Assembly (NCBI RefSeq): GCF_053078305.1
Contig: NZ_CP166879.1
Length of the DNA: 64,000 nt
Direction: 5' to 3' (one strand)
Shown here one piece after another: positions 1 through 8,584 of the stretch. Position 1 is the stretch's first letter. Each line of letters begins with the position of its first letter. The translations under genes were made by a program, and so were the position numbers. The notes beneath the pieces are model-generated. The model was not told the DNA's origin. It did no database searches and was given only the letters and a program-made list of their open reading frames with translations.

Positions 1-2325
1 CTGATTGGCGGTGTGCCCGCGATCTTTCAGCCATGCGTTCAGGCAGACGCGGGTTGCCCGCAGTGCTTCACCCTCAGGCCAGCCGGTGATACCCAGACGG
101 GTTGCCAGTTCACCCGCCATCGCCACCAGTGCAAAGCGATTCACAGCCCGGCCCACCTGGTTGCCTGCATCTTTCGGAGTCAGGGCGGCAGCATATTCCT
201 TCATCAGCGATTTTGCCTGTGCCGTTAGTCCGTTAAGATCAGCGGTCAGTGCTTTCAGCCACTCCCGGAACGGCGAACCGTAGTAGCAGGACGTGGCCCA
301 TTCAAGATGCTCTGCCAGAGCCTTGCCGCTGTCGAAGCCGTGCAGCTCCTCAAAAACGCCAAACTTCCCGGAATCGCTGGGGATCTGGATCATCCTGACT
401 TCCATCCCGGCAAAAGTACGCTCACCGGCCTTTGCCGCATGTTCGGTCAGAGATAACTCGCCAGTTGAAAAGAACAACAGGCGCCACTGCTTACGGGTAC
501 GCAGCTCACCGTCCGTACCGGCACGACCCTTGCCCTGACCGTTTGCCAGCATGTAGGCGATACTGCCTGCCTCGCGTCCGTCAACTTCCCGGATCTCATC
601 AAGCATCATGGCGGCATCGTTGCGGCGGCTGGCGCATCCCTCCAGCGCGTTGCCGGTGGCCCGCCATGTCTGCCAGTAGTCAGGCCCGCCGCAGACGGAG
701 GTTGCCGCTTTCATGGTGGTGGTCTTACCGTCTGTCGATTCCCCTTTGAGGTGGTAGCCGCCGCCGTCCATACCAACCAGCCGTAACAGTGGTGCAGCAA
801 AGGCCAGGCTGACAGCAAATGCCACGCGGGAGTTGCCGGTACAGTAGCGGGATACGTTCTCCCGCCATTCCTCTGTTGTACCCGACACGCGGAAATCACG
901 CCCCTGCACGGAAGTGGTCTGGAGAATGACACCCTCTGCACCTTCACCGCTGACCTCATCCTGCAGGACGTAAACCTGACCATGCCAGCCAGTACGGCTG
1001 ACGCAGGTCACGCGGCGTTCCGGTTTACACAGTGAGATATATTCCATCAGGCGTGCGCGTGCCTCACCGGTGGTGCTGATATAAGACAGCCCGTTAACCA
1101 GCAGTACCCGGCGCAGTTCCTCACCACTGCCGCTCAGCATTTCCATCGGCATCGCCCAGCGGCGACGCTCACCCCATGTATCTTCCCATTCCAGCAGTCG
1201 TCCGAAGTTACCGCCATCGGCATCGCAGGTGATTGCCGTAACGCGCAGCGGGCTGCATATTTTGACGTTCTGGATCTCCGTCTCACCGTTGCGCTGTACC
1301 TGCTTTTCATACCAGAGATATTCCTGGGTAAGACGGAACCCGTGCGGCAGTTGCGTGCGGCCTTCCCCGCACAGTACCAGACCGTTGCGAAAGACTTCAC
1401 GGGCACGGGTAATACCGTGCTCCCGATGAAAGTCATTCCAGTCAGCCTTAATCTCTCCTGGTGGCAGCGTCATCCAGCCGCCAACAGCTTTTGCCGCCCG
1501 TTCAGCAAAGGCTCTGCCGGGATTCTCCCCCCCGTCCTGAAAATCGTTATCACCGGCGATGATAATTTTTACCTCAGGCCAGCGTGCCCGCAGCGACTGC
1601 GCCACATTGGGCAGGTTGCCCGCAGATATGGCAGCCACTACGCATCCGGCAGTGAGCTGGCTTACCGTCAGCGCCGTAGCGTAACCTTCGGTAATCACCA
1701 CCTGTACCGGTGGTTCAGACGGTAACGGGCTGAGCGACACAAACGCGCCTTTCATCGTGCTGCCGGGCAGTATGCTTTTTTCACCCGTCGGGGCGATAAG
1801 CTGTGCACCGGTCACGGCTCCGGTGTTGGTCGTGAGTGGTAACAGCAGAGAACCGGCAGGAAAATCCTTACCGCTGATATGCTGCACGCTTCCGGTCAGA
1901 GAGGCTGGGTATCCGGCGAACCCTTTTCCTGTCAGATAGGCGCTTTCTCCCGTGTGGCTCTCTTTCATCAGCGCCGCCACGGTAAGACCCATGTCGCGTT
2001 TAGGGGCTTTTTGTCTGGCAGGCTTAACAGGCAGTTCCTGCACATCCGGCACATTAAGCATCTGCGCCACCTCCTGCGCAGCCTTTCTGACGCTGTAACC
2101 GGTTACGAGCTTAACCAGATCCAGACCGTCACCATTGCCACACTGGCTGCAGATCCACGTCCCGCGCCCGTCAAGGTCATCAAGGCGAAAACGATCCTTG
2201 CCCCCACATTTCGGGCAGGGACCGTGCCTGCCGTTTTCAGGTACATCAATACGCAGCATCTGCAGAATAACGGGCCATTTCCCCCGCGCGGCGGCTGAAA
2301 TCTGCGTAACCGTCTGTATTGTCAT
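1..2325 (-). CDS. Replication protein: Zn-ribbon + Toprim primase fused to a P-loop (DUF927-like) helicase. It is truncated at its 3' end by the window edge, with at least 775 codons visible.
   Basis: It is absent from the ORF track because no stop codon lies inside the window. Manual minus-strand translation from ATG 2325 (ATGA overlap with the upstream ORF stop) stays open to position 1. It starts MTIQTVTQISAAARGKWPVILQML. Motifs seen: CPKC...CSQC zinc ribbon (codons 37-62), Toprim-like VVITEGYATA and IIIAGDNDF, Walker A GESTDGKTT, Walker B MMLDEIRE. The family assignment (P4 alpha / PICI Pri-Rep type) is from memory. Confidence 0.85.
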   Translation of the reverse strand, partial: MTIQTVTQISAAARGKWPVILQMLRIDVPENGRHGPCPKCGGKDRFRLDDLDGRGTWICSQCGNGDGLDLVKLVTGYSVRKAAQEVAQMLNVPDVQELPVKPARQKAPKRDMGLTVAALMKESHTGESAYLTGKGFAGYPASLTGSVQHISGKDFPAGSLLLPLTTNTGAVTGAQLIAPTGEKSILPGSTMKGAFVSLSPLPSEPPVQVVITEGYATALTVSQLTAGCVVAAISAGNLPNVAQSLRARWPEVKIIIAGDNDFQDGGENPGRAFAERAAKAVGGWMTLPPGEIKADWNDFHREHGITRAREVFRNGLVLCGEGRTQLPHGFRLTQEYLWYEKQVQRNGETEIQNVKICSPLRVTAITCDADGGNFGRLLEWEDTWGERRRWAMPMEMLSGSGEELRRVLLVNGLSYISTTGEARARLMEYISLCKPERRVTCVSRTGWHGQVYVLQDEVSGEGAEGVILQTTSVQGRDFRVSGTTEEWRENVSRYCTGNSRVAFAVSLAFAAPLLRLVGMDGGGYHLKGESTDGKTTTMKAATSVCGGPDYWQTWRATGNALEGCASRRNDAAMMLDEIREVDGREAGSIAYMLANGQGKGRAGTDGELRTRKQWRLLFFSTGELSLTEHAAKAGERTFAGMEVRMIQIPSDSGKFGVFEELHGFDSGKALAEHLEWATSCYYGSPFREWLKALTADLNGLTAQAKSLMKEYAAALTPKDAGNQVGRAVNRFALVAMAGELATRLGITGWPEGEALRATRVCLNAWLKDRGHTANQ

Positions 2326-2705
2326 ACTTCCCCCTGATACAACGTCACACCGGTACTGCAGAAGTCATCAAAGGCCGCCGGAAGCGTGCGGTACATCTCC
2401 GCCATCACTTCACAGCCGCGCGCGGTCAGTACCGGCGGCGCGGTCAGCAGTGACGGCTCCAGCATGTCAGTCAGCAGTGCCAGCGCGGCAGCGGCGCCCT
2501 GTGCTTCGCCGTACTCGTTAATCAGTGCGCACTCGATATGCAGCGCAATGGCCATTTCAATACGCTCCACCGTCAGGCTGTGCGGACCATACTGATCACT
2601 GCCAGTTTCGTTCAGCATTTTCTGCCGCCATGCTGAAGCAATAGCCCGTCGGTAAAGCGCGGTGGTCATTTCTGCCGGGAAAATGGAAACCTGCGGCTGG
2701 TTCAT
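2322..2705 (-). CDS. Hypothetical island protein (127 aa)
   Basis: An ORF in the track. Its start overlaps the stop of the upstream ORF (ATGA at 2702-2705), and its stop overlaps the primase ATG. No motif recognised. Confidence 0.6.
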   Translation of the reverse strand: MNQPQVSIFPAEMTTALYRRAIASAWRQKMLNETGSDQYGPHSLTVERIEMAIALHIECALINEYGEAQGAAAALALLTDMLEPSLLTAPPVLTARGCEVMAEMYRTLPAAFDDFCSTGVTLYQGEV

Positions 2706-2986
2706 CTGGCACCTCCTTCAATCAGTGCGCAGCTGTGTGCAATATCCGTCAAATCTGCCCGCAGGTACTCCATCAGCGCGGCGACACCAGGCGCACAGCC
2801 TGCGTCCAGTGCTCCGGCCTGAGACGGGTATTCAGAAAAGAGAAGCTGGAGCATGTCGCAGGCATTTCTTGCGCGGATCAGCTTTCCGAAACCGTCCTCT
2901 GACAACCCATAGGCAAAAGCACCGGTATTGTGTTTTTCAGGCAAAGTGTGGCCCTGAGCACCGTTGTGCCCGTTTGAAATATTCAT
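2702..2986 (-). CDS. Hypothetical island protein (94 aa)
   Basis: An ORF in the track. A GGAG lies 9 nt upstream of ATG 2986. It is translationally coupled to the next gene. No motif recognised. Confidence 0.6.
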   Translation of the reverse strand: MNISNGHNGAQGHTLPEKHNTGAFAYGLSEDGFGKLIRARNACDMLQLLFSEYPSQAGALDAGCAPGVAALMEYLRADLTDIAHSCALIEGGAR

Positions 2987-3017
2987 CGTGAATTACTCCG
3001 TTTTCAGCGGTATTTTG

Positions 3018-3377
3018 TCAGAGAAACTTTGAATAGTGACCGTCGTCAGGCTCAGCAGAACGCCGTATGGTACGCTCCCGCCAGCGGATAAATAGCACAG
3101 ACGGATGCAGTGTCAGCGGGCCGGAACCACTACTGCCTGCAGGAGCTGGTGCAGGCTTAAAGAGCGGTACATCAAACAGGCGCGTATACCGCTGTTCAAA
3201 CCATGCCAGAGGGCAGGAAGAAAGCTGGTTGTCGCTGTCATGACGTATCAGCACTTCACAGCTGAATTCAGGATTAACCAGCGCCACAGAGGGCGAGGCT
3301 TCTATTAATCGGATAATCGTGACCGTCCAGCCACGTTCATGCCGCCAGCGTTCGCCGGGGTGCGGATAATTACGCAT
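3018..3377 (-). CDS. Hypothetical island protein (119 aa from MRNYPHPGERW)
   Basis: ATG at 3377 is preceded by GGAGGTGAAC, a strong SD. The ORF-track start at 3407 has no SD. It overlaps the end of the Icd-like gene by 8 nt. Confidence 0.6.
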   Translation of the reverse strand: MRNYPHPGERWRHERGWTVTIIRLIEASPSVALVNPEFSCEVLIRHDSDNQLSSCPLAWFEQRYTRLFDVPLFKPAPAPAGSSGSGPLTLHPSVLFIRWRERTIRRSAEPDDGHYSKFL

Positions 3378-3546
3378 GTTCACCTCCGCAGGGAATGCGC
3401 CCGGCAAAGCTCAGTACACAGTCCGGGGCAAGTCTGCGCCGCGCTGACCGCTCATTATCTGCGGTGAGCCTTAACATCACAGGACGGGCATTGCGTTGAC
3501 TGCGGTTGATCGCCGCAAATAACCAGGTACACTTCTGTTTAGCCAT
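3370..3546 (-). CDS. Small protein (58 aa) resembling host cell division inhibitor Icd-like proteins of P4-type elements
   Basis: MAKQKCTWLFAAINRSQRNARPVMLRLTADNERSARRRLAPDCVLSFAGRIPCGGEHA. ATG 3546 is preceded by GAGGT. This is the C-terminal part of a spurious 244-aa ORF in the track. The Icd-like call is from remembered family sequences, not a search. Confidence 0.55.
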   Translation of the reverse strand: MAKQKCTWLFAAINRSQRNARPVMLRLTADNERSARRRLAPDCVLSFAGRIPCGGEHA

Positions 3547-3575
3547 CTTCGTTACCTCATATAGCGGATTGGTCA

Positions 3576-3610
3576 GAAGCCCGGTTAGTGTTGCTGCACT
3601 GTCGGGCTTC
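3576..3610 (-). other. Stem-loop in the 5' leader of the icd-like/primase operon
   Basis: GAAGCCCG (3576-3583) pairs with CGGGCTTC (3603-3610) around a 19-nt loop. There is no following U-run, so it is not a typical terminator. Confidence 0.4.
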
Positions 3611-3622
3611 GCACTCACAAGG

Positions 3623-3712
3623 TGAATCGCACCTTTAATTTTAAAGCTACCCTTAAGTGAATCGCACTTCAAGCTTTTTATTATCATTTTTTTTGCGTAT
3701 ACTGAATCGCAC
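3623..3712. promoter_or_regulatory. Divergent promoter/operator region with three direct TGAATCGCAC repeats
   Basis: Exact 10-mers at 3623-3632, 3658-3667 and 3703-3712. The third abuts a TATACT -10 candidate (3698-3703) for the plus-strand RHH gene. On the minus strand the repeats overlap candidate -35/-10 elements of the icd-primase operon. Confidence 0.6.
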
Positions 3713-3733
3713 CTAACGCGAGGAGATCCAGTA

Positions 3734-3919
3734 ATGGCAACGAGTTCAACTAACAACAAGTCGCAGCAACTTAATGCTCGTTTCCCACATGATGTAGTTG
3801 CAGAATTAGAAAGCAACCTTGAAGATGGAGAAACGAAAGCGCAATTCATTGTTACTGCTGTAAAAGGCGAGATTAAACGCCGACAGCGCAGGAAAAATAA
3901 GCCAGAGCAAGGAAGTTGA
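3734..3919 (+). CDS. Small ribbon-helix-helix (Arc/MetJ/CopG-like) DNA-binding protein, 61 aa
   Basis: GAGGAG SD 8 nt upstream of the ATG. The pattern is beta-strand LNARFP, helix DVVAELESNL, helix TKAQFIVTAVKGEIKRR, then a basic tail. A bidirectional hairpin follows. The fold call is inferred from the sequence pattern. Confidence 0.6.
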   Translation: MATSSTNNKSQQLNARFPHDVVAELESNLEDGETKAQFIVTAVKGEIKRRQRRKNKPEQGS

Positions 3920-3982
3920 ATAGAGAAGCCAACAGACGTTCTCTCTGGTCCCATGTTAATTTCAGTAAGCGACAATATTTTT

Positions 3983-4016
3983 AAGCCCACAAATTCATTA
4001 TGTCGGGCTTTTTTAT
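3983..4016. terminator. Bidirectional hairpin between the convergent RHH gene and alpA
   Basis: AAGCCC (3983-3988) pairs with GGGCTT (4005-4010). There is a T-run after it on the plus strand and an A-run before it. The loop is long (16 nt), so confidence is moderate. Confidence 0.5.
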
Positions 4017-4030
4017 TAGTGATTTTCATA

Positions 4031-4246
4031 TCACTCACCACGAGAGGCATATATTTGCTCTTGAATCCAGTGATCAACTTCGCTTTCAACGAATGAAATT
4101 GCACGAGTTCCTATTTTCACCGGACGGGGAAATGTATTGTTTGCAAGCTGTTTGTAAAGCCATGCCTTGCTACGCTGAACGCGTCTTAATACCTCTTTTG
4201 CTGAGATAAGAGTCTGATTATCTGAAAAGCTGTTTGCATATTCCAT
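4031..4246 (-). CDS. alpA: AlpA-family (MerR-like HTH, Vis/excisionase-type) phage regulatory protein, 71 aa
   Basis: MEYANSFSDNQTLISAKEVLRRVQRSKAWLYKQLANNTFPRPVKIGTRAISFVESEVDHWIQEQ is the typical AlpA signature (FP.P.K.G.R...W...EV..W). ATG 4246 is preceded by GGAG. The ORF-track start at 4291 is an extension. Confidence 0.85.
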   Translation of the reverse strand: MEYANSFSDNQTLISAKEVLRRVQRSKAWLYKQLANNTFPRPVKIGTRAISFVESEVDHWIQEQIYASRGE

Positions 4247-4530
4247 CTTGTTACTCCGTGTTCTACTTAAGTTCACGGTGACTTTAAACACTGGGAAAAA
4301 GTGATTCTAGTGATAATGGAATCTATTAAGACAAACATTGATTCTATTGAAAAACAATAATCTCCACTGAAAAAAAGAAGTAATATTCATATGAAAGAAC
4401 ACGGAAAGAAGGAAATGCACAAAACAATAAAATTAATAAAATTCATATAGATAGGATGGAAAATCAAAAAATCATACGTCAAAAGGTATTATTACATTTT
4501 AACGATTCATATTACCTAGGAATTAGCACA

Positions 4531-4607
4531 GTATTACACCGTATTACATCGTATTACCCCCTATAGCCCCTTAGAGCCTCTTGTGGCCCTTCTATTGAGA
4601 GATAGCC
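4531..4607. repeat. 10-bp-phased repeat tract: three tandem GTATTACNNN units followed by RGCC motifs on the same 10-bp register
   Basis: GTATTAC at 4531, 4541 and 4551. AGCC/AGCC/GGCC at 4565, 4575 and 4585, with another AGCC at 4604. Degenerate ATTAC copies lie at 4491 and 4511. The tract lies just 3' of the 212-codon ORF and about 290 bp upstream of alpA. Confidence 0.8.
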
Positions 4608-4622
4608 AGAAAATTAATAAAT

Positions 4623-5261
4623 TCACTCTCCGTATTTTATAATGTCTTTCCCCAGCTTTATTTTCTTATAAAACGTAGCTTTTTTAATCCCTTTCATTAG
4701 AATCTCATTCTCATTACAAAAAGAAACAATATCATTATATATAACACTATTATCGCTATAACTTACCTTTCCATGTCTCTTAAGCAATTCAATTAGTAAA
4801 TAAATTAATTTACAACTATAATTATCCTCATCATCTTTTCTGTACTGCCCTCTACCATTACTCCTTAATTTTTTACCAACTTCACATAATTCACTTCCTC
4901 CTAACGTCATTAGAATATCGCTCCAATCTTTATTTTTTACCTGTTGTCGTAATGCGTTCTCAATTCTCTCCTTAATCTCCACAGGTACAATACCTTCCCT
5001 CTGAAAGATATAAGCAGCAGTTAATAATAAGTTCGCCTCCACTTTTTGCGTGGCGGATACGTTTTTATATTCATTAATTAATTGTAGATTTCTGGTTATT
5101 GCCTTTCTTAATCTAATAACCTCTTTTAATTGAACCTCAGTCAATTCATCATTTTCGGTATCATAGTCAAAACCATTCATAGCAAGCGCCACTTCGTGTG
5201 GCGTTATGTAAGTTAACCTATTAAAATAAAACAAATTATTATCAAATTGAGTATTGTTCAT
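4623..5261 (-). CDS. Orphan AT-rich protein of unknown function (212 aa) with a possible C-terminal helix-turn-helix
   Basis: An ORF in the track. GGAGAG lies 8 nt upstream of ATG 5261, which is only 29 nt after the int stop. Hand-counted lines give about 22-35% G+C. No enzymatic motif recognised. The C-terminal GIKKATFYKKIK resembles resolvase/Hin-type HTH recognition segments. Confidence 0.75.
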   Translation of the reverse strand: MNNTQFDNNLFYFNRLTYITPHEVALAMNGFDYDTENDELTEVQLKEVIRLRKAITRNLQLINEYKNVSATQKVEANLLLTAAYIFQREGIVPVEIKERIENALRQQVKNKDWSDILMTLGGSELCEVGKKLRSNGRGQYRKDDEDNYSCKLIYLLIELLKRHGKVSYSDNSVIYNDIVSFCNENEILMKGIKKATFYKKIKLGKDIIKYGE

Positions 5262-5290
5262 TTAAATCTCTCCGCAGCCCCCAATGGTAA

Positions 5291-6553
5291 TTATTTTCCA
5301 TGCATACGCGCAAAATCATATGGTGTGATAGATCCATTCTTATTAGCATCAATATAATCAGCCCACCATTGCAACATTAATCTTCTTTCTTCAAGATATT
5401 CGGAAGTATGCATATATGAACCTTTCACGTTTTTTCGTTCAACGTGGCTTAACTGTCTTTCAATGGCATCATCATTCCATAGTTTCGACTCACTTAGCGC
5501 ACCACGCGCCATAGTTCTAAACCCATGACCACATACTTCAGTTTTCGTATCATATCCCATTACACGTAAGGCGTTATTTACTGTATTTTCACTCATTACT
5601 TTTTTAGGATCATGATCGCTGGGAAATATAACCTCACCTTTACCACTCAAGGCATGTAAACGTTTAAAAATATCAAATGCTTGTTTGCTAAGCGGAACAA
5701 TATGTTCAGTTTTCATCTTCATCCCACGCTCAGAGTGTTTTACGCCGGGAATAGGCTTACGAATTCCGGGTATTGTCCACTCGCTTCGTTCAAAGTTAAC
5801 CTCACTCCAGCGAGCAAAACGCATCTCACTTGAACGTATAAATGTGAGTAGCGTTAATTCAACGGCAAGCCGTGTCATTAGTCGCCCTTTATAGCGTGAT
5901 AGTCTTTCAAGAAGCTCAGGAATTCTTTTTGGGGGTAGTGCTGGGTGGTGGGTTGCTTTAACGCTTAAAAGCGCTCCAGCCATATCGCATGCAGGATTTG
6001 ATTCAAGCAGGTCATTCTGCACACCAAAACGCATAATTGCGGTTACGCGCTGCATCAGTCGCTGCGCGACATCATGTTTACCTGCCGTATCGACAGCTTT
6101 GATTGGATTGAGAAGCTGGCTGGTTCTCAACGTTCTGGCATCGATTTGACCTATCGAGGGGAAAATATACTGCTCAAGTGTCAGCAGAACACGACGGCTA
6201 TGATCTTCGCTCCAAGTAAGGTTACTTGCGTGCCATTGCCTTGCGATAGTTTCAAATAAATATGCCCCCTCAATTTCAGCTTGTGCCCCCTTTTGCTCAG
6301 CTTTGGGGTCAATACCCTGAGACAACAATTTCTTTGCTGCATCGCGCTTACCCCGCGCTTCAGCCAAAGTGACAGTCGGGTATACACCAAAAGCGAGTCG
6401 ATCTTCCTTTTTGTCAGAGGGGCGGCGATATTTCATGCGCCAGTACTTAGAACCTTTAGGGGAGACCTCAAGATACAAGCCGCCTCCATCAGCCATTTTA
6501 TAAGCTTTCTCTTTCGGCTTTGCGGTCTCTATCTGGCGAGCGTTGAGTTTCAT
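5291..6553 (-). CDS. int: P4-type tyrosine integrase (420 aa from MKLNARQIETAKPKEKAYK)
   Basis: The N-terminal Arm-DNA-binding signature (KLNARQIE..AKP..K.Y...DGGGLYL.V...GSK.W...Y) is present, as are the catalytic R (FIRSSE), HGFR and C-terminal Y (GSYMHTSEYL). It is adjacent to the tRNA 3' end. The ORF-track start at 6574 is a 7-codon extension. Confidence 0.92.
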   Translation of the reverse strand: MKLNARQIETAKPKEKAYKMADGGGLYLEVSPKGSKYWRMKYRRPSDKKEDRLAFGVYPTVTLAEARGKRDAAKKLLSQGIDPKAEQKGAQAEIEGAYLFETIARQWHASNLTWSEDHSRRVLLTLEQYIFPSIGQIDARTLRTSQLLNPIKAVDTAGKHDVAQRLMQRVTAIMRFGVQNDLLESNPACDMAGALLSVKATHHPALPPKRIPELLERLSRYKGRLMTRLAVELTLLTFIRSSEMRFARWSEVNFERSEWTIPGIRKPIPGVKHSERGMKMKTEHIVPLSKQAFDIFKRLHALSGKGEVIFPSDHDPKKVMSENTVNNALRVMGYDTKTEVCGHGFRTMARGALSESKLWNDDAIERQLSHVERKNVKGSYMHTSEYLEERRLMLQWWADYIDANKNGSITPYDFARMHGK

Positions 6554-6607
6554 TTTGGGGGCACAAATCCTCATCGAATTGACATGCCCCCGATTATGCC
6601 CCCAAAA
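6553..6607 (-). promoter_or_regulatory. Inverted repeat and GGGGGCA repeats in the int leader
   Basis: TTTTGGGGGCA (6553-6563) is the exact reverse complement of TGCCCCCAAAA (6597-6607). There is an extra TGCCCCC at 6585-6591. The proximal arm ends on the A of the int ATG. Confidence 0.55.
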
Positions 6608-6717
6608 GAGGGTAGACTACAAGAGACCAACAAAGACCATTAGATACCATACTTTACTTGTTTTTTAAGGATTTTTTTGTATTTAGAGACTTCAGGAAAC
6701 GTCAAAAGAAGTGTTAA

Positions 6718-6802
6718 TGGTGCCGAAGGCCGGACTCGAACCGGCACGTATTTCTACGGTTGATTTTGAATCAACTGCGTCTACCGATTTCGCCACTTCG
6801 GC
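6718..6802 (-). tRNA. leuX: tRNA-Leu (anticodon CAA)
   Basis: The reverse complement reads GCCGAAGTGGCGAAATCGGTAGACGCAGTTGATTCAAAATCAACCGTAGAAATACGTGCCGGTTCGAGTCCGGCCTTCGGCACCA. This is a class II tRNA with a long variable arm, a CAA anticodon and an encoded CCA. It is identical to my memory of K-12 leuX. Confidence 0.97.
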
Positions 6803-6831
6803 ACTGAAGAGGTATGCGGAAAACGTTGTGG

Positions 6832-6860
6832 ATTATACCTGTCGCACGCCACCATGCAAG
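6832..6860 (-). promoter_or_regulatory. Candidate leuX promoter
   Basis: On the minus strand there is CTTGCA (6860-6855), a 17-bp spacer, then TATAAT (6837-6832), 30 nt upstream of the mature tRNA 5' end. Confidence 0.5.
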
Positions 6861-6997
6861 CGCCAGCTTGCTCGCACCTCGCTAAGTGCTGAAATTTTCA
6901 GCATTGCATACAGCGATGTGTAACCTTTGTCACACTCCAGGCACCCCTCCCTGCCATGCTCTACACTTCCCAGACAACACCAGAGAAGGACCAAAAA

Positions 6998-8017
6998 ATG
7001 TCGATGATAAAAAGCTATGCCGCAAAAGAAGCGGGCGGCGAACTGGAACTTTATGAGTACGATCCCGGTGAATTGAAGCCACAAGATGTTGAAGTGCAGG
7101 TGGATTACTGCGGGATCTGCCATTCCGATCTGTCGATGATCGACAACGAATGGGGATTTTCACAATATCCACTGGTTGCCGGGCATGAGGTGATTGGTCG
7201 CGTAGTGGCGCTCGGGAGTGCCGCGCAGGATAAAGGTTTGCAGGTCGGTCAGCGTGTCGGGATTGGCTGGACGGCACGCAGCTGCGGGCATTGCGATGCC
7301 TGTATTAGCGGTAATCAGATCAACTGCGAGCAAGGTGCGGTGCCGACGATTTTGAATCGCGGCGGTTTTGCCGAGAAGTTGCGTGCGGACTGGCAATGGG
7401 TAATCCCACTGCCAGAAAATATCGACATTGAATCTGCTGGGCCGCTGTTGTGCGGCGGTATCACGGTCTTTAAACCACTGTTGATGCACCATATCACTGC
7501 CACCAGCCGCGTCGGCGTGATTGGTATTGGCGGGCTGGGGCATATCGCTATAAAACTTCTGCACGCAATGGGATGCGAGGTGACAGCCTTTAGTTCTAAT
7601 CCGGCGAAAGAGCAGGAAGTACTGGCGATGGGTGCCGATAAAGTGGTGAATAGCCGCGATCCGCAGGCACTGAAAACTCTGGCGGGGCAGTTTGATCTCA
7701 TTATCAATACTGTGAACGTCAGCCTCGACTGGCAGCCTTATTTTGAGGCGCTGACCTATGGCGGTAATTTCCATACGGTCGGTGCGGTTCTCACGCCGCT
7801 GTCTGTTCCGGCCTTTACGTTAATTGCGGGCGACCGCAGCATCTCTGGTTCTGCTACCGGCACGCCTTATGAGCTGCGAAAGCTGATGCGCTTTGCCGCC
7901 CGTAGCAAGGTTGCGCCGACCACCGAACTGTTCCCGATGTCGAAAATTAACGACGCCATCCAGCATGTGCGCGACGGTAAGGCGCGTTACCGCGTGGTGT
8001 TGAAAGCCGATTTTTGA
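6998..8017 (+). CDS. ahr: NADPH-dependent aldehyde reductase (Zn-dependent ADH family), 339 aa
   Basis: [45 protein letters not shown] plus the GHE motif and structural-zinc cysteines. It matches Ahr/YjgB from memory. The ORF-track start at 6956 is an extension. Confidence 0.95.
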
Positions 8018-8020
8018 AAA

Positions 8021-8584
8021 TCATTCGCAGCGCTGATCTGAGGCGCTGCCCTCTTTCGCACATATTCTGTTTTGTCGTATCGCCAGCACAGCCTGCCGAC
8101 ATTGTTCGGTGACATTGGCAATATCATGGTTGATATCAATGCGCACAATATCCTGTTCATCTGCTTGTGGACGCTCCAGCGCCTCAAACTGACTTTTTAG
8201 TAACGCTACCGGCATAAAATGCCCAGCCCGACGCTGCATTCGCGCGAGGATAGTTTCATAGTCGCCATCTAACCAGAGGAAATGAACATGGGGGCTACCC
8301 TTGCGTAAAATATCACGATACTGTTTTTTTAATGATGAACAGACAATAAATCCTGTTTCATTCTTTTTATAAAGACTGTATGAAGCATCATTTAAGCGTT
8401 CCAGCCAGGGAAGTCGATCTTCATCAGATAATGGAATACCCTGCGACATTTTATCTATATTTTTGGCTGGATGAAGATCGTCACCATCAATAAATTTAGC
8501 AGATAATAACGCGGCAACCTTGCTACCAATTAATGTTTTACCACTCCCTGAAACGCCCATCAAAATAAAGCTTTCACCCGCCAT
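8021..8584 (-). CDS. idnK: D-gluconate kinase, thermosensitive
   Basis: 187 aa with P-loop GVSGSGKT. It is divergent from idnD. Matches IdnK/GntV. Confidence 0.95.
   Translation of the reverse strand: MAGESFILMGVSGSGKTLIGSKVAALLSAKFIDGDDLHPAKNIDKMSQGIPLSDEDRLPWLERLNDASYSLYKKNETGFIVCSSLKKQYRDILRKGSPHVHFLWLDGDYETILARMQRRAGHFMPVALLKSQFEALERPQADEQDIVRIDINHDIANVTEQCRQAVLAIRQNRICAKEGSASDQRCE

Follow-up and report, generated by a model that had tools for sequence, protein, structure and literature searches.

A predicted two-layer repression cassette in a P4-like satellite: a YlcI/YnfO-family gene, three putative operators and a SymR-like RNA

The DNA analyzed here, a stretch of 64,000 nt from contig NZ_CP166879.1 (GCF_053078305.1) that we call the window and whose positions serve as coordinates unless another locus is named, contains at positions 1-6800 one end of an E. 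coli P4-like satellite integrated at a tRNA-Leu gene. The early/replication operon of this satellite lies on the minus strand and consists of an Icd-like gene, three small open reading frames (ORFs) and a primase gene. Divergent from it is a plus-strand gene for a 61-aa protein of the YlcI/YnfO family. We propose that the operon is probably, if not assuredly, under two-layer control, exerted by the 61-aa protein as a ribbon-helix-helix (RHH) repressor on three operators (O1, O2 and O3) and by a SymR-like antisense RNA lying over the Icd-like/primase operon.

According to this model, the operon would be held off at two levels. At the level of transcription, the 61-aa protein would act as an Arc/Mnt-like RHH repressor on three pseudo-palindromic operators, which it would read through β-strand residues 12, 14 and 16. 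Occupancy of O2 would cover the spacer and -35 element of the operon promoter, occupancy of O1 would cover the transcript start, and occupancy of O3 would cover the repressor's own -10 element and start site, producing negative autoregulation. At the level of translation, the SymR-like RNA, transcribed from a promoter in the first Icd-like codons, would cover the start codon and Shine-Dalgarno sequence of that gene and, by presenting an anti-Shine-Dalgarno sequence in a hairpin loop, would block initiation on transcripts that escape the first layer. A block on this first cistron, which is probably toxic, could in turn lower expression of the downstream replication genes through polarity or coupling. 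As to induction we can only speculate: it could proceed through a helper-phage factor, or through AlpA-driven transcription reading in from alpA. Transcription of alpA through a weak terminator and antisense across the repressor gene would offer AlpA a possible route to override.

The comparison on which this model draws covers approximately 25 related loci (given L numbers below), 17 of them from a genome scan and the others from exact protein look-up. The complete genome L001 holds an identical copy of the element and supplies the part that lies beyond the window. The coordinates of all features are collected in Table 1.

A predicted SymR-like antisense RNA

From structure and homology together, production of a SymR-like cis-antisense RNA from the plus strand at the start of the operon is very probable. 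The predicted RNA is perfectly complementary to the start codon and Shine-Dalgarno sequence of the Icd-like gene. It shares the SymR architecture of a cis-antisense transcript over the start codon and Shine-Dalgarno sequence, a promoter within the target ORF, and two hairpins. The Rfam SymR model (RF01809) aligns over its full length (1-77) with the plus strand of the window (26.3 bits), L021 (33.4 bits) and L004 (31.6 bits), in each case at the homologous place. Reciprocally, the best match in 14 kb to a covariance model built from satellite loci only (R1) is the annotated K-12 SymR (24.2 bits, rough E 5e-5). Loci outside the training set of R1, namely L028, L029 and the phage-inducible chromosomal island (PICI) EcCICFT073, score 68-75 bits.

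The two hairpins are also found by RNAalifold in the 17-locus alignment, with 13 compensatory pairs. Twelve pairs have changed on both sides, a level of covariation that 0 of 500 shuffles and no slid control reached. Hairpin B consists of an 8-bp stem (3576-3583/3603-3610) extended through an inner helix of 4-6 bp. The preliminary description of this region had reported the same stem as a hairpin in the leader of the operon's mRNA; the stem is indeed present, but it is formed by the plus strand, as the 3' stem-loop of the antisense RNA, rather than by the leader.

The corresponding alternative, in which 3576-3610 is an attenuator or stability element of the minus-strand leader mRNA and no antisense RNA is made, appears improbable. 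In its favour, no plus-strand U-tract follows hairpin B in the window, and the minus strand, too, can form the inner portion of this hairpin. However, the window folds to -31.0 kcal/mol on the plus strand (z -4.6) versus -22.7 kcal/mol on the minus strand (z -2.7), and across loci the plus strand folds better by 8-14 kcal/mol (z -4.6 to -7.0), with a larger gap in L004 and L021. Hairpin A mostly fails to form on the minus strand. In the alignment, 94% of pairing cells can pair on the plus strand versus 75% on the minus strand, and G·U cells number 84 versus 1. The reciprocal similarity to SymR is found on the plus strand only. In most relatives a T-run follows hairpin B on the plus strand, and on the minus strand no locus has a U-tract after the hairpin.

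The position of the candidate antisense promoter, at a distance equivalent to that of symR, likewise speaks for the antisense RNA. This promoter falls in Icd-like codons 5-14, and its -10 hexamer ends 7 nt before AGCCAU. A TAnnnT hexamer exactly 7 nt upstream of the RNA start is present in all 17 satellite loci, and in L016, L019, L021 and L023 it is TGn-extended. The same geometry is seen for the K-12 symR -10 hexamer, TAGAAT. The symR -10 element was inactivated by mutation by Kawano et al. (PMC1891008).

The O1 palindrome (3619-3635), flagged by a scan as a terminator, was rejected as such. A T-run after O1 occurs only in the window and L002, so it could at most be a local second terminator for the antisense RNA.

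Two sequence relationships involve the region of hairpin B. The 10-mer TGTCGGGCTT occurs both in its 3' arm (3600-3609) and in the 3' arm of the RHH gene terminator (4001-4010), and positions 3585-3605 are 81% complementary to a segment in the terminal part of the RHH gene (3880-3900).

The 61-aa protein and its putative operators

The 61-codon ORF, the sole plus-strand gene in the satellite part of the window, is by its codon-position statistics a genuine gene, because differences from 15 relatives are concentrated at the third position (126/104/431 at codon positions 1/2/3). It belongs to the YlcI/YnfO family: residues 9-50 score 65.7 bits against NCBIfam model NF041551 (cut-off 30), and RefSeq annotates the identical protein as YlcI/YnfO. 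With K-12 YlcI itself it shares only 27% identity, over 30 residues. Homologues are plentiful in Enterobacterales (105 by sequence, 811 by profile). A tblastn search of 50,697 phage records gave no match, and no functional study of the family was found in the literature searched.

A ribbon-helix-helix fold is likely, to judge from models and profile alignments. In the AlphaFold2 model (pLDDT 73), two helices come after an extended N-terminus, and several family members give sub-threshold matches to RHH-type Pfam families. In hhalign the strand QLNARFP is aligned with QFNLRWP of Arc (E 7e-4, probability 26%), and HFNFRMP of Mnt is aligned the same way (E 0.05). Residues 12, 14 and 16 are thereby placed on Arc Q9, N11 and R13, which are DNA-contacting residues. 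Foldseek found no significant match in the PDB, and sequence searches for a solved (PDB) relative returned nothing useful.

The minus-strand frame from 4104 to 3370 is open for 244 codons, in frame with the Icd-like gene. It takes in the 3'-terminal part of alpA, the strand opposite the RHH gene and the entire intergenic region. In L023 and L024, gene callers merge the equivalent frame into ORFs of 495 and 428 aa. These long fused ORFs are probably an artefact of a stop-free antisense frame. The codon-position statistics rule out that the frame is the real gene and the 61-codon ORF spurious.

The family namesake occupies a different setting. In the K-12 prophage DLP12 (L027, 6252-6840), ylcI is directly beside the prophage cos site and nohD, the gene for the small terminase subunit, and not within a promoter switch. 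A Terminase_2 domain in L019 carries a fused, weak DUF3950 match, and the YlcI/YnfO family may therefore have more than one role.

The intergenic region between the divergent genes measures 187 bp (3547-3733), as had been described; the Icd-like ATG is at 3546, not 3547. Within it, the decamer TGAATCGCAC occurs exactly three times, at 3623-3632, 3658-3667 and 3703-3712, all on the plus strand and spaced by 35 and 45 bp. This too agrees with the preliminary description, and no further exact copy is found in the 64-kb window or in the complete element of L001. Only 8 of 100,000 shuffles of the 187-bp region yielded any 10-mer three times. The first two copies are the cores of pseudo-palindromes, of 17 bp in O1 (AAGGTG-AATCG-CACCTT, 3619-3635) and of 15 bp in O2 (AAGTG-AATCG-CACTT, 3655-3669). 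The extended consensus NGTGAATCGCACYT that had been given for all three does not fit the third copy, ACTGAATCGCACCT, the left arm of which is lost to the TATACT -10 element.

Both promoters are predicted from conserved hexamers, and the sites overlap these divergent elements. The leftward arrangement TTGA[AG]G-17 nt-TAnnnT is kept in all loci, across genera, though the surrounding bases vary. A promoter at 3672-3644 places O2 in the spacer and on the -35 element and O1 at about +2 to +19, in line with the earlier supposition that these two repeats lie on the likely promoter of the replication operon. As also noted earlier, the third decamer adjoins the TATACT hexamer, which it overlaps by one base. 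O3 thus lies on the RHH gene's own -10 element and likely start, and is taken to be the autoregulatory site. The -10 region of the RHH gene (CGTATACTG) is invariant in 12 loci, and in L016 and L021 its equivalent is CATAAT, with a TTTACA -35 element.

The positions of the sites relative to the RHH gene are largely fixed. An O3-type site starts at -31 from the RHH ATG (-30 in L024) wherever a site was found, and an O2-type site is at -76 in nearly every locus, the exceptions being L017, with no recognizable -76 site, and L018, with no site at all. Loci with sites at -31 and -76 come from Escherichia, Citrobacter, Morganella, Proteus, Dickeya, Pectobacterium, Xenorhabdus, Yersinia, Enterobacter and Cedecea. 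The distal site is at -111, or flipped at -99 or -112. O1 is invariant in 12 loci and is flipped or shifted to -99, with its arms retained, in L013, L015, L016, L017, L019 and EcCICFT073. Among 12 same-class loci, 28 of 30 operator columns are invariant, versus 45 of 95 in the remaining region.

As far as the alignments indicate, the motif follows the small protein and not AlpA, the Icd-like protein, the primase or the integrase. Throughout the 12 loci compared, RHH protein identity is 60-93%; the other four proteins are mostly less than 55% identical or undetectable in the same loci. The exception is L002, the closest relative (Icd-like protein 88%, primase 95% over 56% of its length). Elements whose primases are of different families also carry the cassette, as do PICI-like elements. 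Where the protein's strand is Q-L-N-A-R the operator is TGAATCGCAC; Q-K-T-A-R goes with TGACT(C/T)(C/G)CAC, F-M-T-A-R with TGATACACAC, Q-I-G-A-R with TGAA(G/C/T)..CAC, and A-L-K-A-R, the strand in EcCICFT073, with TGTGGCCCAC. Changes at residues 12 and 14 coincide with changed central operator bases, and R16 is constant alongside the constant outer TG..CAC. This correlation suggests a link between the strand residues predicted to read DNA and the center of the operator.

Two further loci, L028 and L029, carry an exchanged cassette. Their Icd-like protein differs from that of the window at 2 of 58 residues, and the order of small ORFs and the primase family are the same. Homology to the window stops at 3621, just before O1. 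Beyond the equivalent of this position is another small protein with an RHH-like pattern, accompanied by other palindromes (GGTAATTACC twice in L028, TGTAATG/CATTACA in L029). The alternative divergent genes (L028 3558-3872, L029 3556-3876; 57 and 64 aa) belong to satellites at tRNA-Thr and tRNA-Arg, respectively, and Pfam returned nothing for their products, for which the RHH call rests on sequence pattern alone. Since the small gene and the repeats are swapped together, the unit behaves as an immunity cassette, and the alternative cassettes suggest that several "immunity types" exist.

Taken together, the comparative evidence supports a cassette that represses both the Icd-like/primase operon and itself. 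The autoregulated switch proposed earlier is thus upheld as regards an RHH-type gene and operator-like sites on divergent promoters; binding and repression are what we infer from them.

A different reader of the sites is conceivable. AlpA, or another element or host factor, could bind them while the 61-aa protein has an unrelated role, and AlpA-family genes are in fact detected in many loci, AlpA activates downstream genes in EcCICFT073, and K-12 ylcI is not part of a promoter switch. Yet among loci with identical decamers AlpA is at most 56% identical or undetectable, motif changes accompany those at the small protein's residues 12 and 14, small gene and repeats are replaced together in L028 and L029, and one site is always on the small gene's own -10 element and start. 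We therefore regard binding by AlpA or another factor as quite improbable.

It is very improbable that the decamers are replication-origin iterons bound by the primase/helicase, in the manner of P4 ori and crr bound by the alpha protein. The decamers are directly repeated ahead of a replication operon, and the ori of P4 precedes the left operon, where it lies between vis and sid. However, the same decamer class accompanies unrelated primases (TOPRIM/DUF927 here, D5_N/Pox_D5 in L019 and L024, DUF927-only in L023), and the motif is unchanged while primase identity is mostly 31-44% or undetectable (L002 excepted). The decamers map exactly onto promoter elements. Neither of the features expected of ori and crr, two clusters sharing the repeat and covariation with the initiator, was found: no second decamer cluster was detected in the element. 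A separate set of repeats, GGTGGAACA/TGTTCCACC in at least 8 copies and in either orientation, is found instead in the interval from the primase gene to the sid-position gene (L001 10031-10220). TGTTCCACC resembles the P4 type I ori/crr iteron TGTTCACC with one extra base, and by this resemblance the cluster is likely the satellite's crr/ori. Equally slight is the chance that the 61-aa protein is a partition-type RHH protein (omega/ParG-like) and the repeats a partition site for a plasmid state of the satellite, given that there is no ParA-type ATPase in the cassette or conserved beside it, that just three sites occur, exactly on -35, -10 and +1 elements, and that the cassette is also in PICIs not known as plasmids.

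Several points weigh against two-layer control by an RHH repressor and a SymR-like RNA. There are few operator specificity classes, and these are not independent phylogenetically. Neither predicted promoter matches the consensus well, and a simple promoter scan reported neither. The RNA is not a member of the Rfam SymR family, as its scores are far below the gathering score of 61 bits, and it is therefore named SymR-like; in addition, no U-tract follows hairpin B in the window, as is also the case in K-12 SymR. Lastly, overexpression of AlpA alone induces EcCICFT073 (PMC6092414) despite the cassette. The RHH protein is therefore no insurmountable block, and AlpA overrides or bypasses it.

Relation to known repression and immunity systems

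EcCICFT073 (L031, NC_004431.1 1373000-1386000), the prototype among Gram-negative PICIs and one studied by experiment, carries the same cassette at 7474-8053. It contains a YlcI/YnfO RHH gene (7474-7653), an Icd-like gene, an R1 RNA (68.5 bits), and operators at -99, -76 and -31 (TGTGGCCCAC twice and TGTCCCCCAC). AlpA is the known activator in Gram-negative PICIs, and the repressor of these islands has been recorded as an open question (PMC6092414). It is possible, rather than probable, that the YlcI/YnfO RHH gene, the three operators and the SymR-like RNA form the missing master repression ("immunity") module of Gram-negative satellites, including P4-like elements, PICIs such as EcCICFT073, and capsid-forming PICIs (cf-PICIs). 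Such a module would have exchangeable specificity alleles, as in lambdoid imm regions, would replace the C4-RNA immunity of P4 at the same locus, and would be overridden by a helper factor or by AlpA-driven antisense read-through into the operon. SymE/SymR would then be its relative or remnant.

The corresponding slot in P4, flanked by vis (AlpA family) and by the Icd-like ORF with which the alpha operon begins, holds the C4-family CI RNA and its targets. Searches with the C4/CI-type Rfam models C4, c4-a1b1 and isrK (RF01695, RF03163 and RF01394) found none at E<=1 in window positions 1-8000, none at E<=10 in 3450-3760, and none at E<=0.1 across the whole L001 element, and an RNA of this type in the operon leader was accordingly rejected. 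P4 itself, as positive control, gave C4-type RNA and targets at 74.9, 60.8 and 44.1 bits. Conversely, the R1 model gave no hit on P4. With the C4 RNA only in P4 and the R1 RNA only here, the two satellite lineages use different cassettes at the same position. The contrast drawn earlier between a protein switch and the RNA-based immunity of P4 is thus half right: the C4/CI RNA is absent, but an RNA layer of the SymR-like kind is present.

The Icd-like protein matches the C-terminal portion of P4 ORF137, the obsolete "cI" (L026, X51522, 8168-8584), at 52% identity. This similarity explains why Icd-like proteins are labelled "transcriptional repressor" in PHROGs and some phage records, and the old P4 "cI gene product" seems to be the source of the label.

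Several characterized systems share parts of this design. In the immI region of phage P22, mnt is divergent from arc-ant, with operators on the back-to-back promoters Pmnt and Pant and a sar antisense RNA. As proposed for the window, a small Arc/Mnt-type RHH repressor is divergent from the operon it represses, its operators occupy promoters arranged back to back, and a ribosome-binding site in the operon is covered by a short cis-antisense RNA; the strand motif [QH]-x-N-x-R-x-P is also common to both. However, the sequence similarity is marginal (hhalign E 7e-4 for Arc, 0.05 for Mnt), P22 has one operator per promoter and not three operators, its controlled operon encodes an antirepressor, as opposed to Icd-like and replication proteins, and its antisense RNA is sar, as opposed to a SymR-like RNA. 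In plasmid pMV158, repB is governed by the autoregulated RHH repressor CopG and by antisense RNA II, which blocks translation initiation. Dual control of replication genes by an RHH repressor and an antisense RNA would be common to both, but copG is co-transcribed with repB and CopG has a single pseudo-symmetric operator. The "CopG-like" label applied earlier to the window's switch consequently fits in function, while no sequence relationship was detected.

In phage P1, C4 controls translation of icd. The P4 CI RNA occupies the same genomic slot as the cassette, and in the C4/CI systems, as proposed here, an RNA gates the first small cistron of the early operon. The C4 and CI RNAs differ in being processed sense-strand RNAs acting on repeated targets, in contrast to an opposite-strand cis-antisense RNA, and the window adds a putative protein repressor.

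The resemblance to K-12 SymE/SymR (RF01809) extends to an RNA of approximately 77 nt transcribed from a promoter inside the target ORF and covering start codon and Shine-Dalgarno sequence, to the two-hairpin architecture with linker UUGUGRUUAG and loop GUGUUG..GCAC, to reciprocal model matches, and to control of a probably toxic gene by two agents, a repressor of its transcription and an RNA antisense to it. On the other hand, match scores are 24-33 bits versus a gathering score of 61, the target is AbrB-fold SymE in K-12 and an Icd-like protein here, and the repressor is LexA there and an element-encoded RHH protein here; symE is under the control of LexA plus SymR (PMC1891008). The Stl (Rpr) master repressors of Gram-positive satellites, the Staphylococcus aureus pathogenicity islands (SaPIs) and PICIs, also derive from a gene divergent from the excision/replication operon and would keep the satellite quiescent (PMC6092414). 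They differ in being larger helix-turn-helix proteins inactivated by helper-phage proteins, and induction in Gram-negative PICIs goes via AlpA.

Each ingredient of the cassette is thus of a known kind. The combination, its role in a satellite and the SymR-like RNA are undescribed in the literature searched. The cassette is present, at least in part, in 637 of 5426 complete E. coli genomes and also in many other genera. Enterobacterales very commonly harbour P4-like satellites and PICIs, whose cargo includes defence and virulence genes, and a mechanism that silences them is known only for the RNA immunity of P4; the cassette offers a candidate composed of one gene, three sites and one small RNA. 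It would also give the uncharacterized YlcI/YnfO family a likely function and extend SymR-like RNAs beyond the single known chromosomal locus, as well as account for the mislabelling of Icd-like proteins in phage databases.

The satellite and its other features

Table 1. Features of the satellite part of the window (window coordinates; promoters, operators and RNA are predicted)
Feature	Position	Strand	Remarks
Primase gene		-	TOPRIM/DUF927; runs past left window edge
Three small ORFs		-	One a DUF5375 protein; between Icd-like gene and primase
Icd-like gene	3370-3546	-	58 aa; first cistron of operon; NCBIfam NF033153 81 bits
Candidate antisense-RNA promoter	3506-3533	+	-35 TTGATC 3506-3511, 16-nt spacer, -10 TACACT 3528-3533
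SymR-like cis-antisense RNA	3541-3613	+	~73-77 nt; Rfam SymR, covariation, strand asymmetry
Hairpin A	3542-3573	+	5' arm over Icd-like start codon; loop CCUCAUA is anti-Shine-Dalgarno
Hairpin B	3576-3610	+	After conserved linker; the "leader hairpin" of the preliminary description
Putative operator O1	3619-3635		AAGGTGAATCGCACCTT; core decamer 3623-3632; about +2 to +19 of the predicted leftward promoter
Candidate Icd-like/primase operon promoter	3644-3672	-	-35 TTGAAG 3672-3667, 17-nt spacer, -10 TAGCTT 3649-3644
Putative operator O2	3655-3669		AAGTGAATCGCACTT; core 3658-3667; fills leftward promoter spacer, touches -35
Candidate -10 of RHH gene	3698-3703	+	TATACT; shares one base with third decamer
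Putative operator O3	3701-3714		ACTGAATCGCACCT; core 3703-3712; over last base of -10 and likely RHH transcription start
RHH gene (putative)	3734-3919	+	61-aa YlcI/YnfO-family protein; strand motif Q12-x-N14-x-R16-F-P
Intrinsic terminator of RHH gene	3984-4015	+	Stem GCCCACA/TGTCGGGC + T6
alpA (AlpA/Vis-family regulator)	4031-4246	-	Pfam PF05930 1.4e-11, RefSeq annotation; convergent with RHH gene
212-aa ORF	4623-5261	-	Between int and alpA
Integrase gene (int)	5291-6574	-	
tRNA-Leu	6721-6802		Integration site; ahr/idnK/idnD adjoin satellite

The window itself covers only int through the start of the primase gene. Within the operon, the following ORF begins (3377) in overlap with the Icd-like stop codon. 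The terminator of the RHH gene also serves alpA in the opposite direction, in which it is weaker.

The complete element in L001 has the gene content of a P4-like satellite, with int, AlpA, a TOPRIM/DUF927 primase, psu and ogr/delta beside tRNA-Leu. Its sid-position gene is annotated "septation initiation", and a cargo hotspot is also present.

The int-alpA RNA motif (RF02996) scores above its gathering threshold on the minus strand of L003 (7057-7125), L016 (7113-7181) and L024 (6844-6914). It is not found in the window, where the 212-aa ORF occupies the int-alpA interval.

Beyond the window, L001 4884-7968 encodes a 745-aa AAA-family ATPase and an adjoining 280-aa hypothetical protein beside delta. 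This pair, located at the position of a known P4 defence hotspot, is possible anti-phage cargo.

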